A stretch of 64,000 nt of DNA, from NCBI RefSeq assembly GCF_057098645.1, contig NZ_JBXSPU010000002.1; one strand, written 5' to 3'. Position 1 is the stretch's first letter. Every line of letters begins with the position of its first letter. A program made the position numbers. Positions 36,001-42,000 of this stretch are shown here, one piece after another. Source of the DNA: a plasmid.

Positions 36001-39000
36001 TCAGAATGATAAGGTCTACCTGACACCGGGTTTGCTCGATGATGATGGTCTGCCTAATTTTAATGGAGTCACCAGGCAGGTGCCCGGAGAAGGTTATCAG
36101 CCAGTCAATGTCTATGAATTTGAAAGTGACTATTTTAACGCGGTATACGATGCAGACGGGAAGAAAGTGGCACTTTGTCACTGGTATGATGTGACGGATA
36201 ATTCATATTCTGCTGAAGAACTCATAGGCAATATGCCGCATAACGCATTTAAATTTCTTCAGTATAGACTGGATAATATCGAGCAGGCTGAGGCATTTAT
36301 CAAATACAGAAACCGGAATTATCAGCCCCGCGAAAATGCAGACTGGCCTGAGCCACCTGAAGGAGTTAAGCGTTACGTCATCAGAGCCCGAAGCTAGGTG
36401 AAAAATATTAAGGCAAAAGTTCAGTATGGAAATTGGTAAATCATACTGAACAATTAATATGACATTAGGCATGACTATAAGTAGGTGCCTTATTGGATGG
36501 TACATCGTATAAAAAGTAACTTTTCTAATCTCACCCAGCACTCCGGGAATGATGCTAACCTAAATCACGGGAGCAGTGCTGGATATTGGTCAATTTATAG
36601 TTCCTGTGGAATGTAAATGTAATTAAATGTTGCAATAAAGCGTGGTTGTGTTAAAAAGTAGGCTTCATTACCTAAGTTAAATTTTATAATGTATGCCAAA
36701 GAAGAATTTATACTCTGAAGAGATTGTGATTGCCAAAAAGCAACTCACTCAGCTTTCAACACTAAAAGATAAAGTCAGCCTGCTAACCCGTCAGTGGGAA
36801 GGTGATATTGGCGCCAATCTGCCTGGTTACACTGAGCTATTAGCTCATGTGGAAAGAATTGAAAGGCAGATTCATGAACAAATTGGCAGCTGGAAAAAAA
36901 CTCCTGCAATGTAAGATTCGCCTATCCATTCTGAAGCGGTGGTTTTGTTTAAGGGTAAAAAAATTCATTCCTTAATAGTTCTGTGACGCCGCTTTTAAAT
37001 CTTGGATGTTTGACTCTAAATGTCTATCATTTAATTAACAGTAATTATGATGTTGTCAGCCTTATTCCTGGCTGAATCTCAATATATTACCATACGACTT
37101 CATTTTGCTTATCTTCGGGTTCTCGAAGAATTCCGCCATGATTGTTCATAGCAGGAGGTTAGTATGGGTGTAGACATGAATTATGAGTTTCAGAAAAAAA
37201 GCCCTAAGGGATGGGACCGGGTTAACGATAATTTTTCAAACGACCGAAGCTATTTGCTTTATTCATGGTTGGGTCTGGATGCCCGTAACACCTGGGGTGT
37301 TGCAGCGATCACTCCTCTCAGGGGATTACCCGATGACATAGAACTTCAATGGGATGAGGATGGATGTGATGACTACTGGGGTGAGCATTCCCAAACGTGG
37401 TTACTATCCGACGAGATCCTTGCTTCAACCAGCCCGGTAGCCATTGAAGACGATGAACCGGGGTCGGTAGTTGCGGAGTTTTGTGCGGAGGTTCAGCGAC
37501 TTCATGGGCTGCATGGGACGGTAAGAATTGTTCTAGGCTTCACTGGTTAAACAAGGCTGGACTATCTAATGCCTCCAGACAACGTAATCCTGACGTGTTC
37601 ATCTACTGTAACCTGGTCGCTGGGGATATATCGCGGCCACCCTGACACGTCATTTGCATTTTTGATGATAAACGAAGGGTAGCCGAACTGCTCGGCCGCA
37701 ATATCGATATAAAAAATCATTTCACCGGCACTTACCTCACACCAGTAATGGCCGTGCCCGCCAGACTCATTGAAAATACCACCATCATCTGTTCCGTTCC
37801 CGCCTCGCACAGCTGCGGACATACCTCTGCGGTGCGCAAATTCACAAACCAGCAGACTGGCGAACATGCATGTTCCTGTGGTGTCGCTTGTCCCATTGTC
37901 ATTGAGGATATTTTTTAGTGATGAATAAGCATCAGTTGCGAGTGCCAGAACTGGAGTATCAACGGGAATAGAGGCCTGGTCAGTCATGAAAGAATGTCTC
38001 CGGTATGATGGAACGGCTAATTAAACAAGCAATGAGTTGATTCCGTTTTTGAGTACTTCACTTTCAGGCAACCAGTACCCGGAATCACACACCCATGATT
38101 CGCCCGGGAAAATGAAACCTTCGCGGACCAGGAATACTCTAAAATTTGGCGGCAGTACATTTTCTATTTTTAGCATGTATCCTTCCTGAATGGATAGATT
38201 TTTCAGCTCAGATAGAAGATTCGGTGAGACGATGAGAGTCATTAACTGAGTTGAGTTTAAAATCGCAACTATAGATGCATCATTATAGTTTTCCTGTCGA
38301 ATACCATGACAACGTAGAGTCAGGGATGCAGATCTTCGAGGCGAAACCATCGGTAACTAAATCGAGTAAATTTGGATTTAGCCGATTACCCGGTGCTGGC
38401 CTAAACGGCTCATAGTGATACCCCGGGTACTGTAAACTGCTGAAAATGCCGTGGGGCGCTTCTGAGGCTTTGTCAGGGCCACAGAACATGTTTATCCACA
38501 TCCGGAGGCGGTAGTACTTAGCTTATTCATTCATAAATGATATATCTCTGAAGAGAATATTACGTTACCTGCGCAATTATTATTCTTCCCTCTGAACATT
38601 GCTGGCATAACCAGTCATCGATGCACCGGCGAACTCACTGAAGTGTTGGCATATAGCCCGGTTACGTAACTCCCGTGTCACGGTGGCCACGGTTTTACGG
38701 CGCACTGGAGAAAGTGAAGTGGCACACTGAATTTGGCCACCTGAACAGAGGTGATATGCTCACCTCAGAACAACATGAAGAGAATGTACTCTGTACCTAA
38801 TGCAAGAAACGAGAGGGAGATCAGAAATCCTAACGTATTGATTTATCAGTTAGTGGGAGTGACATATGAACTTATTTACCACAGTAGGTGATTTAACATA
38901 ATCCTCGTTATATGTACCAAGTCTGTAACAGCAAAGTTGTAATGTCCGCCTTGGGCTAAGTTAAGATGTCCGGCGTGTATAATCAAGTAAGGATTACCAT

Positions 39001-42000
39001 GACGGCTCTCGCAGCGGAGTTTTTCACTTTGGATGAAGTTAACCGACTCAAGATTATTCAGGACGTCATCGACCGGCGTCTGACAACACAGATGGCAGCG
39101 CAGCGGCTTGGTATCTCCGACCGCCAGTGCCGTCGTCTGCTTGCGCGTTATCGTGAAGATGGTCCGCTTGGCATGACCAGCCGCCGTCGTGGTAAATCCA
39201 GCAATAATCAGCTGCCTCAGGGACTGGCCGCATACGCGCTGAATATTATTCGCGAACGCTATAACGATTTCGGTCCGACTCTGGCCTGTGAAAAACTGGC
39301 TGAGGTTCACGGCGTTCATATTTCCAAAGAAACGGTTCGTAAGTTGATGACTCAGGCCAGTCTTTGGGTTCCACGTAAGCAACGTGCGCCAAAAATCCAG
39401 CAGCCGCGTTACCGACGTGCCTGTGCCGGTGAACTCATACAAATTGACGGCTGCGACCATCACTGGTTTGAAAACCGGGGACCCAAGTGTACAGCACTGG
39501 TTTACGTTGATGACGCCACCAGTCGTCTGATGCAGCTTCGTTTCGTAAAATCTGAATCGACTTTCACCTATTTTGAAGCGACACGGGGCTATATTGAAAT
39601 GCATGGTAAGCCACTGGCGCTCTATAGCGACAAAGCCAGTGTCTTCAGGATCAACAATAAAAATGCCACTGGCGGCGAAGGCGAAACGCAGTTTGGACGT
39701 GCGATGCACGAACTGAACATTCAAACCATCTGTGCAGAAACCAGCGCAGCAAAAGGTCGTGTTGAGCGGGCGCATCTAACCCTTCAGGACAGACTGGTCA
39801 AGGAACTCAGGCTTCAGGGCATCAGCACAATGGAATCTGCTAACGCATTTGCCGAAGAGTTCATGAACGATTACAACCGACGTTTTTCAAAAGCGCCTCG
39901 CCAGGAGTTCGATGTTCATCGGGAACTGGATGTCGATGATGATCTTGATATGGTGTTTACTTGGCGTGAAGCCCGCCGCGTGTCGAAATCACTCACTGTG
40001 CAGTACGACAAAGTGCTTTACCTCATTGAAGACAATGAGTTCAGTCGTCGGGCGATTGGTAAATACATTGATGTCTGGCATTACCCTGACGGACATAAAG
40101 AGCTCCGGCTTAATGGCGTATCACTTCCCTACTCCACCTATGACAAACTGTCTGAAATCGATCAGGGTGCCATTGTGGACAATAAACGTCTTGGCCGTGC
40201 GCTGGAGATGGCGCAACTTGTGCAGGCCGAACGGGATAATAACCGGTCACAATCAGTGCCATCCGGTGACGGCCCTTCACGCAGGCGCAAAGCCCCTACG
40301 ACGAAGAAATCCCAGCGTTCTTTGGACCAGGACGATATGTTCAATGCACTTGTAAAACTTCAGACACGAGCTGAGGAGATTTTTGGTGAACGCAACCAAA
40401 AATGATGTTTTGATACGAACATTTCAATGGTTAATAGATAGAGTGGAGATGGGCAGATGATAACGTTTTCTATGGATGAAAGTGGCTATACGGGTTATGA
40501 CTTACTCCACAAAGAGCAAAAATTCCAAGGCGCGTCATCAATATTAATAAATCATGATGACGCCAGTCGTCTGATAAAAGAATATTTCCCCAAACTTCAA
40601 GCCGATGAATTGAAGTACAGCTCGCTGAAAAGAAGAGATTCCAACCGCAAGCCATTATTTGAATTGCAAAAGCATCTCTTATCTAATTACCCATGTATAA
40701 CATGCGTAGGTGATAAACGCTTTTTACTAATTCTTATGTTCATCGATTATGCTGTTGAACCATTCTATTATGATTCTGGGATTAATCTTTATGAAGATGG
40801 CGGTAACTTCTCAATGGCATCAATGGTGTATTACGTTGGACCAGCGTATTATGGCTCTGCCTTTGATGATGTTCTGCTTCAGTTTCAAAATGCTATGAAA
40901 GAAAAAACATTAGATTCAGTGAGTTTGCTAATAAGCAAAATAAGGAGGCTTGATTGGCAAAGGTTAAAAGAGTTTTTTGGTCCTTTGGCATTTAACCACC
41001 CAGATTGCATTGATGCCATCATGACTGATGGAATTAGCACTGATGCCTCATTTACTATTTTAAATGCATTAATTTCTCGCACGGAAATGATGTCCTCTGG
41101 AGAGTATGCAATTGAGCATGATCGTTCTAAAAATCTGCTAACTTACAATGAACGCCTTAACTTTTTGATCAATTGTGATAAGGAAGGAGAGTTTAAACAT
41201 TCCGAGATAGCAACTATCTCATTCCCTCTAAACCTTAAAAAAGTCTATCAAATTGATTCGAAAGAAAGCCCAAGCGTGCAATTGTGTGATGTTCTTATAG
41301 GTGCATGTATTGAATCAGTTTATCAATTAATGGACTCTAAGGTGCTCAATCAAAATTCCGTTCTTTCACTTTACCAAGATAGCCAGTTAATACATTTCAT
41401 ACCTGATATAGATTTTGAAGGACAGAAAAAATTTAGGAAAGGCAGTCAAAGTGAGGAGTATCTTACGTTTATTCAAAATGAAATCTACTCTAGTAAACTT
41501 TAAAAAAAGGTTCTGAAAATCAGAACCTTATCGCACCACCAGACATAGAAATGATTCGTGAAGCTATTTTATACAGAACCAAAAACGCAAAGGCCAAAAC
41601 AGTCATGATATCTAATACCATAGGCATTACCTCCACTAACGTATTCAAAACAGCAGTTCAGATTGCAGAAGTGGATTGTTTTCGTTCATCAATATCTCCA
41701 AGAAAATAAATATGTACCTGATTATAGAAAATAAAAATCTCTCATTGTTTGATTAACTGTGTAGAAGATAAAATAAATACCCAAAAGCAATAGTGGATAA
41801 TGCTAACACCACACAATTAGCAATGTACCAGATCAATGTTTGGAACTTAAGCCGCCAGATCATTTCAGGCTCTTTACCGCTTGAAACTGAGCCTCTACCT
41901 TCACTGACTAACTTATCAGCATTTTTAAAATGCTGATAAGTTGAACCAGCACGAAAAGTAAGCCATGCCATACCTAACATTATGAATCCAAATAAATAAA

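Follow-up and report, generated by a model that had tools for sequence, protein, structure and literature searches.

Left part of a probable IS1202-family transporter element, with a DUF3800 cargo gene, beside a dif-like site of an IncHI1 plasmid

The subject of this article is a transposase gene (tnp) and the AT-rich DUF3800 gene that follows it, carried on a 64,000-nucleotide stretch of plasmid DNA (contig NZ_JBXSPU010000002.1 of RefSeq assembly GCF_057098645.1; hereafter the window). The two genes very probably belong to the left 2.7 kb (38924-41652) of a transporter element of the IS1202 family, about 3.6 kb long when complete, whose right end has been deleted in IncHI1 plasmids. The complete element runs from a left terminal inverted repeat (IRL) through a subterminal site for the transposase (Tnp), tnp, the DUF3800 gene, a hairpin and a pentapeptide-repeat gene on the opposite strand to a 49-bp right module. 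It inserts beside a dif-like site, leaving 5 bp between its IRL and the XerC arm, and duplicates 5 bp; the same tnp and ends carry alternative loads elsewhere, either a type I cyclic-oligonucleotide-based anti-phage signalling system (CBASS; 3572 bp) or an arsHRBC-usp-sulP block (7188 bp). The deletion in IncHI1 would then have taken away the pentapeptide gene together with the right end, the duplication's second copy and some flanking backbone, leaving an intact transposase gene with one end.

Over the 3 kb that we tested, the window does not differ from IncHI1 plasmids of the tet(X4) type such as pSY3626_190k_tetX, which are about 190 kb long (100% identity). The features on which the argument turns are these.

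38891-38918, minus strand: dif-like Xer site (xrs), with XerC arm GGTACATATAA at 38908-38918, spacer CGAGGA at 38902-38907 and XerD arm TTATGTTAAAT at 38891-38901
38919-38923, plus strand: AAGTC spacer, expected to be one half (the left) of the target duplication; in complete copies the 5 bp at the corresponding position recur after the right end
38924-38950, plus strand: IRL, TGTAACAGCAAAGTTGTAATGTCCGCC, starting TGTAACAGC, with TGT at its tip and C at position 9
38955-38973, plus strand: subterminal, presumed transposase-binding motif GCTAAGTTAAGATGTCCGG, a direct repeat of the inner part of the IRL
38924-40397, plus strand: left module (IRL and tnp, 1474 bp), about 90-93% identical in nucleotide sequence to siblings carrying other cargo
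38999-40405, plus strand: transposase gene tnp, 468 aa, open reading frame (ORF) intact
40457-41503, plus strand: DUF3800 gene, 348 aa, 36% G+C, beginning 51 bp past the tnp stop
41507-41529, no strand: hairpin with a 10-bp stem, AAGGTTCTGA-AAA-TCAGAACCTT, between A- and T-runs and kept in complete copies
41504-41652, plus strand: last retained piece of the element, ending ...TTCAAAACA at 41652, the truncation point
41653-41711, no strand: 59 bp between the truncation point and the HI-plasmid backbone, with no match in the compared loci

A sequence-only reading of this DNA had described a 468-aa helix-turn-helix (HTH) transposase followed closely by a markedly AT-rich gene, and the description stands. 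RefSeq starts the transposase at 38999 (the alternative start at 38966 would give 479 aa in place of 468) and labels it 'ISNCY family transposase' (WP_000125669). The protein matches four HTH families of Pfam, HTH_32, 23, 28 and 29, and the NCBIfam model transpos_ISNCY_2 with E=8.6e-154, the DDE models of IS481 and IS3 matching more weakly. Two HTH regions are followed by the DDE residues D150, D211 and E256, with Q263 seven residues beyond the glutamate; the stretch VERAHLTLQ holds both E256 and Q263. A search of the Tnp sequence against the sequences of the Protein Data Bank (PDB) gave no match. The second gene differs sharply in G+C content, 0.356 against 0.510 for tnp (36% versus 51%), the window as a whole standing at 0.468. 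RefSeq calls its product a 'DUF3800 domain-containing protein' (WP_000627692), and the domain assignment proposed from the sequence was confirmed by Pfam (PF12686, E=5.4e-5, 24.4 bits against a cut-off of 21 bits). A perfect TATAAT lies at 38978-38983, 15 bp upstream of the tnp ATG. An antisense ORF of 299 aa overlapping tnp (38876-39775, minus strand) has no RefSeq annotation and is most likely spurious.

The earlier reading had found no terminal inverted repeats, and the explanation is simple: the left one is there, at 38924-38950, and the right end is missing from the window. Homology among related copies in IncHI2, IncF and other plasmids always begins at 38924, with TGTA(A/G)(C/T)(A/G)GCAAAGTTGTAATGTCC. 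The IRL occurs once in the window when up to three mismatches are allowed. Its inner motif is repeated once, at 38958-38971, so that the left end carries the pair AAGTTGTAATGTCC and AAGTTAAGATGTCC; a mirror-image pair sits at the right end of complete copies, within the 49-bp right module. Scanning the window with the IRL and the inner motif returned only the IRL, its subterminal repeat and one chance-level match to the inner motif (two mismatches, 59436-59449), and a scan with the right inverted repeat returned only the IRL and the subterminal repeat, shuffled windows giving similar best scores.

Immediately outside the IRL lies the dif-like site. On the plus strand the order is ATTTAACATAA (38891-38901), TCCTCG, TTATATGTACC (38908-38918) and AAGTC; the XerD arm is perfect, and a search of the 64 kb for ATAA-N6-TTATGTTAAAT gave a single match where 0 were expected. 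An equivalent 28-bp dif-like site plus 5 bp stands upstream of every copy examined, and the distance of 5 bp between XerC arm and IRL is the same in all complete copies. The layout of dif-like site and insertion sequence (IS) in Table 8 of PMC10132070 is the same as the one here. Positions 38776-38901, comprising the XerD arm and 115 bp of flank, have a 99% identical counterpart in Escherichia coli KL53, directly next to the canonical dif of the chromosome, near hipA and ydeS, where dif in reverse complement reads ATTTAACATAATATACATTATGCGCACC. This resemblance suggests that the plasmid copy is a genuine Xer site, possibly the end of an Xer-mobilised segment of the IMEX (integrative mobile element exploiting Xer) or dif-module kind. 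A second Xer site in the opposite orientation, which an IMEX or dif module would need, was not found in the 64 kb, the site described here being the only dif-like one. Further out, a 61-bp fragment (38715-38775), presumably IS911-like, matches the left end of an IS3-family element; it occurs in more than 4000 of 5426 complete E. coli genomes and accounts for nearly all BLAST matches to its region. In R27/pHCM1-type IncHI1 plasmids a 5.1-kb tricarballylate (tcuRABC) block sits exactly at the 38714/38715 junction.

The right end was located by scanning related loci. Four of them hold an inverted sequence, TGTCAAAGCTAAGTTCAGATGTCCGGGG, identical to the IRL at 19 of 27 positions and followed by a second inner motif; in complete copies the right end has the sequence ...GCTTTGACA and finishes ...GGACATCTGAACTTAGCTTTGACA (...TTGACA-3'). 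With both ends in hand, complete copies and siblings could be delimited as follows.

Citrobacter braakii pF217-2: 3597 bp, duplication TAACG; tnp, DUF3800 gene and, on the opposite strand, pentapeptide-repeat gene
Klebsiella pneumoniae pS166-1.1 and pLH94-1: 3598 bp, duplication AATTT; tnp, DUF3800 gene and opposite-strand pentapeptide-repeat gene
E. coli pB16EC0481-1 and pEC213_1-OXA-181: 2802 bp, duplication AAGGG; DUF3800 gene and pentapeptide-repeat gene, tnp mostly deleted internally
pSL131_IncHI2 sibling: 3572 bp, duplication TAAGT; type I CBASS
Enterobacter hormaechei pFJMB80374_1 sibling: 7188 bp, duplication TAAGT at the same site; arsH-arsR-arsB-arsC, universal stress protein gene and sulP
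Citrobacter sp. MGH105 sibling: 7188 bp, duplication TATAA; same ars-usp-sulP content

Perfect 5-bp duplications are found at five independent sites among these copies, the sequences repeated past the right end being TAACG, AATTT, AAGGG, TAAGT and TATAA. Even the 2802-bp derivative that has lost most of tnp retains both ends and its duplication, and the C. braakii copy, complete and flanked by duplications, encodes a transposase identical to that of the window (WP_000125669). The sequence-only reading could not decide whether the DUF3800 gene was cargo or a neighbour. In complete copies the terminal inverted repeats and 5-bp duplications enclose tnp, the DUF3800 gene and the pentapeptide-repeat gene, and because the limits bracketed by the 5-bp repeats contain it we conclude, from sequence comparison, that the gene is cargo of the element. 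It also co-occurs with tnp in IncF, IncFIB/IncU and C. braakii plasmids, which bears on the suggestion that it might travel with the IS in other genomes. A neighbour would have been indicated by ends that exclude the gene and by conservation of the gene as plasmid backbone; the ends enclose it, and backbone-like conservation is seen in IncHI1. As a description, an IS transposase with a DUF3800 gene behind it is accurate, the unit itself being a 3.6-kb transporter element and not a 1.5-kb IS. Two points count against this account of a moving element. A search with the C. braakii flanks joined into a synthetic junction yielded no empty site for the DUF3800 element, which is present in all 11 records with that right flank, and movement would have to be read from the duplications, without before-and-after pairs.

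The state of the window copy can be described in some detail. Positions 38866-41652 correspond to 4461-7247 of the C. braakii pF217-2 locus (L002) at 99.1% identity, and there the homology stops. The 868 bp of complete element beyond 41652, which hold the pentapeptide gene and end in the 49-bp right module, are absent: neither the gene nor the right end nor a second duplication copy occurs anywhere in the 64 kb, and no right-hand copy of AAGTC was found in the window. Homology to the HI-plasmid backbone restarts at 41712, a position that in a related Citrobacter plasmid lies 511 bp beyond the right end. The simplest reading of these alignments would be one deletion spanning the right part of the element and the adjoining backbone. 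More than 130 PLSDB plasmids share this junction. Decay has gone further within the IncHI1 lineage. R27/pHCM1-type IncHI1 plasmids also carry the element but without 41554-42240, and pEQ1-type plasmids retain only 40870 onwards. With a single end, the window copy would be unable to transpose, because DDE transposases require two; it is probably a dead remnant, inherited vertically with the plasmid and behaving like backbone in IncHI1. The hairpin at 41507-41529 has survived just inside the truncation point and looks like a bidirectional terminator between the DUF3800 gene and the pentapeptide gene, here lost.

Comparison of the three cargo types shows how little they have in common: the only shared parts are the 1474-bp left module and the 49-bp right module. 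The CBASS of the pSL131_IncHI2 sibling was recognised by PADLOC through its oligonucleotide cyclase (E=1.8e-149) and its 4TM effector (2.7e-153), and the transposase of this sibling is 96% identical to that of the window. The tnp module is found in 740 plasmids of PLSDB and the right module in 760. Right ends are in deficit among Escherichia and Salmonella records, which fits the truncated IncHI1 copies. A literature search found no report linking IS1202-family elements to CBASS or other defence cargo. One can go further, and we do so doubtfully. The transposase and ends might define an undescribed set of cargo transposons that target Xer sites, with fixed 1.47-kb left and 49-bp right modules and an exchangeable bay in which resistance operons and immune systems (CBASS, or an RNase HII-like DUF3800 nuclease acting alone) would travel from one dif-like site to another among large enterobacterial plasmids; DUF3800 would then be a new single-gene anti-phage or anti-plasmid effector, and ISRor8 a mis-delimited member of the set.

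Mobile copies probably transpose through a circle, by the copy-out-paste-in route that has been reported for ISKpn21, and probably choose their target by recognising an Xer site with XerC bound to it. The right end's TTGACA (L002 8110-8115) is a perfect -35 hexamer and, in a circle junction, would face TGTAAT of the IRL (38938-38943) at a suboptimal spacing of about 19 bp; the two may form a junction promoter, as has been proposed for ISKpn21. Other IS1202-family elements flank the DUF3800 element at the same Xer site, head to tail and 5 bp apart (L003 2237-4513 and 8122 onwards; L004 8121 onwards; L024 3974 onwards). One of these stacked elements is 2277 bp long, the size of ISKpn21, and has its own passenger ORF. 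The stacking matches the tandem insertions of Siguier et al. Just outside the C. braakii pF217-2 element lies an unrelated feature, an AgrB antisense RNA (Rfam, 65 bits; L002 8552-8640, plus strand) beside the dinQ toxin gene.

What, then, does the DUF3800 protein do? The sequence-only reading called such proteins uncharacterised, which is not wholly so: published work predicts a nuclease with an RNase H fold and connects the domain with retron type VII and some Cas12 and Cas13 loci (PMC7736814, PMC10910872, PMC12669027). We collected about 490 homologues, the closest outside the plasmid lineage being 60-64% identical. In an alignment of 54 of them D7, E8, D222, D267, Q275 and D278 are invariant and D86 nearly so, D7 and E8 making up an N-terminal DE motif and Q275 and D278 a C-terminal QxxD. 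The structural model agrees with the published prediction: it is that of an RNase HII-like nuclease with a large helical insertion, and the known structures that it fits best are bona fide RNases HII, HIII and H2. Identity to RNases HII and HIII is 10-13%, and the DUF3800 protein adds to them a helical insertion of about 125 residues (87-212); its profile found no meaningful match to any solved structure among PDB sequences. We infer that the protein would be a metal-dependent nuclease of the RNase HII type, built around D7/E8 and Q275xxD278.

DUF3800 domains have been reported in retron type VII (PMC7736814), beside Cas12a2/a3 (PMC10910872; bioRxiv 2026.01.16.699850) and in V-A2 and VI-F loci (PMC12669027). 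The DUF3800 proteins of retron type VII-A2 and the TPR-DUF3800 proteins (TPR, tetratricopeptide repeat) of Cas12a2/a3 and type VI-F loci share with ours the Pfam domain, the N-terminal DE motif and a predicted RNase H(II)-like fold. The window protein differs in standing alone, with no reverse transcriptase, msr/msd, Cas or TPR partner, and in keeping the QxxD that the retron-associated clade lacks. Homologues of about 60% identity are found as lone accessory genes of diverse mobile elements. In Serratia P2-like prophages one lies between gpA-side genes and the portal gene, and this slot is the P2 gpA-gpQ defence hotspot defined by Rousset et al. (PMC9122126). In the P2-like phages 899 and GMG73 the gene lies between tail-fibre assembly and sheath genes, in a Proteus prophage it follows (lambda-like) tail-fibre genes, and in Pseudomonas aeruginosa it sits at the edge of a type IV secretion system element. 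These locations, together with the CBASS in a sibling, lead by guilt by association to a reading we hold tentatively: the protein may act alone as an effector, borne by mobile genetic elements (MGEs), against phages or other MGEs, cutting RNA-DNA hybrids or structured nucleic acids.

Several observations weigh against such a role. In PADLOC-DB v2 the protein matched no more than the candidate PDC-M04A, weakly and over 32 residues (E=1.8e-4). The bay also holds the ars operon, which is not a defence system, so a place in the cargo bay does not imply defence, and part of the DUF3800 gene has been lost in some IncHI1 plasmids with no obvious consequence. Structured RNAs accompany many DUF3800 genes (PMC5737381), and Rfam found none of the known DUF3800-associated motifs in the window or in five related loci. 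A quick comparison of the flanks of distant homologues revealed no conserved non-coding block except among closely related phages. In P2- and lambda-like prophages a short stretch containing GGTATCAA lies just past the stop of the DUF3800 homologue (L011 6048-6075, L014 6048-6075, L026 5048-5075); the plasmid copy has none.

Structural matches to bona fide RNases HII, HIII and H2 would suit a humbler occupation too, that of a housekeeping-type RNase H serving the mobile element by dealing with R-loops, primers or embedded ribonucleotides in plasmid or phage replication or conjugative transfer. Carriage of the gene by several kinds of replicating MGE and its stable retention in IncHI1 plasmids speak the same way. 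We consider this unlikely, given that the gene occupies accessory and hotspot slots rather than replication modules, that the 125-residue helical insertion is missing from RNase HII, that retron, Cas12a2/a3 and type VI-F loci repeatedly contain the domain, and that pEQ1-type plasmids dispense with the gene. The thought that DUF3800 might instead be an accessory transposition protein, a second, RNase H-like nuclease analogous to TnsA of Tn7, comes naturally from a gene with a nuclease fold directly downstream of tnp on the same strand, the more so as the IS1202 transposase is TnsB-like. It is very improbable, because the siblings move without DUF3800: with a 96%-identical Tnp they carry CBASS or ars in its place and still show duplications at two different sites. 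Close DUF3800 homologues also occur in prophages and in elements resembling integrative and conjugative elements with no such transposase nearby, and the contrast of 36% with 51% G+C points to a foreign origin.

The limits of the element deserve the same scrutiny. Homology among all siblings ends about 8 bp before the tnp stop, closing the 1474-bp block, and tnp and the DUF3800 gene are kept together across IncHI1 lineages as backbone would be. One could therefore picture a self-contained IS of about 1.5 kb with its right end just past the tnp stop, beside a DUF3800 gene belonging to the IncHI1 backbone, much like ISRor8, which is listed at 1472 bp with a 465-aa Tnp and no detectable duplication. 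To this we give hardly any credence. No inverted IRL or inner motif follows tnp in any copy, and a right end at 40406-40456 was rejected on that ground; the long forms lie between perfect 5-bp duplications at five different sites; tnp and DUF3800 appear jointly in IncF, IncFIB/IncU and C. braakii plasmids; and the tnp-deleted derivative keeps both ends and its duplication. That the window copy is still mobile as a 2729-bp tnp-DUF3800 element ending at the ...AAAACA of 41652, a boundary that has the ACA of family ends and coincides with divergence from the complete copies, is scarcely conceivable: by manual comparison the reverse complement of 41626-41652 agrees with the IRL at about 7 of 24 positions and holds no Tnp-binding motif, AAGTC does not recur after 41652, the sequence runs on into the pentapeptide gene in every other context, and all records with this junction represent the same IncHI1 location. 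An apparent 4-bp AACG repeat in C. braakii had made 41652 a candidate right end; it was rejected, the real end and the 5-bp TAACG lying 868 bp further on.

Beyond the remnant the plasmid backbone has some features of its own. A gene at 41753-42052 (minus strand) encodes a predicted membrane protein of 99 aa with no family match; it is found at 93% identity beyond the right end in IncHI2-type backbones and is deleted in R27-type IncHI1 plasmids. Further downstream, 42400-44784 and 44903-46330 look defence- or nuclease-like, with genes for a phospholipase D (PLD)-family protein (weak matches to DrmC and PDC-S69), a 325-aa protein that matched no family, a member of the thermonuclease family and a cytosine methyltransferase of the Dcm type. 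The PLD gene is lacking in a related Citrobacter HI-type plasmid.

Within the window the significance of all this is modest, a dead remnant that nevertheless exposes a widespread dif-targeting cargo element. The 'ISNCY transposase' of IncHI1 and IncHI2 resistance plasmids, seemingly without ends, is on this account the driver of a larger element that targets dif sites and whose true right end may sit 2-6 kb away, which would resolve a common annotation puzzle in these plasmids. A single IS1202-family backbone would carry a CBASS immune system, a block of arsenic-resistance genes and a DUF3800 nuclease from plasmid to plasmid, tying the targeting of Xer sites to the dissemination of defence and resistance genes and widening the scope of the family beyond an IS with one hypothetical passenger. 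The compact, stand-alone and high-confidence DUF3800 protein is also a convenient candidate for learning the function of a widespread, defence-associated domain.

Where does the element stand among known systems? By sequence features it is a member of the IS1202 family, in the ISAba32/ISAjo2 subgroup, complete copies standing in where the window is truncated. The subgroup is described as having TGT/ACA termini, imperfect terminal inverted repeats of 24-26 bp, C at IRL position 9, duplications of 3-6 bp and an IRL 5 bp from the XerC arm (PMC10132070; bioRxiv 2022.12.17.520857); the former also describes an additional subterminal Tnp site in ISAjo2-type IS, and the same paper gives Q at the seventh residue after the catalytic E as a signature of the family. 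Our element has TGT...ACA ends, duplications in its complete copies, the XerC-arm spacing, a Tnp in the 400-500 aa range with HTH, DDE and Q, and internal repeats. The known passenger-carrying members tISKpn21, tISKpn65, ISKpn63 and ISRel10 have one 'hypothetical' passenger each and reach at most 2.5 kb (PMC10132070; bioRxiv 2022.12.17.520857); demonstrated transposition or a circular intermediate has been reported for ISKpn21 only (bioRxiv 2022.12.17.520857). tISKpn21 and tISKpn65 share with our element the TGT...ACA ends, imperfect terminal inverted repeats of about 25 bp, a 5-bp duplication, an IRL 5 bp from the XerC arm, a Tnp of about 467 aa with Q at the same place, and passenger ORFs. 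They are smaller, 2.0-2.5 kb against 3.6 kb (siblings up to 7.2 kb), and ours differs further in having at least two identifiable passengers (DUF3800 nuclease, pentapeptide repeat, CBASS, ars) in an exchangeable bay, and in the loss of the right end from the window copy. An ISKpn21-sized element directly adjoins the DUF3800 element in pS166-1.1, and the Tnp of the ISKpn21-sized element is 76% identical to that of the window over 427 aligned residues.

ISRor8 comes closest in size. Its ISfinder entry gives 1472 bp, a 465-aa Tnp, no detected duplication and an enterobacterial host, and it clusters with the short-duplication group (PMC10132070). The 1472 bp nearly equal our 1474-bp module of IRL and tnp, a comparison of listed size and not of sequence; if ISRor8 belongs to the same Tnp lineage, its limits may have been drawn too short, which would explain the missing duplication, and we offer this as a lead only. 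A point against novelty is that the element may already be catalogued in ISfinder or TnCentral, with ISRor8 and ISKpn63 as unconfirmed candidate names. ISSen13, an IS1202-family member of type 2 IncHI1 plasmids, is distinct (1542 bp, 456-aa Tnp, 3-bp duplication): its site, AGTGCGTATAA-GACACA-TTATGTTAAAT, is not the GGTACATATAA-CGAGGA-TTATGTTAAAT found here, so that element and site both differ. Tn7 with its TnsB resembles our element in having TGT/ACA termini, repeated transposase sites at each end and the same TnsB-like DDE core, in inserting site-specifically and in carrying cargo. The difference is that our element has no homologues of TnsA, TnsC, TnsD or TnsE, a single transposition gene lies between its ends, and its target is an Xer site rather than attTn7. 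Set against what is known, it is a larger, multi-gene relative, with exchangeable cargo, of the passenger-carrying IS1202 elements.

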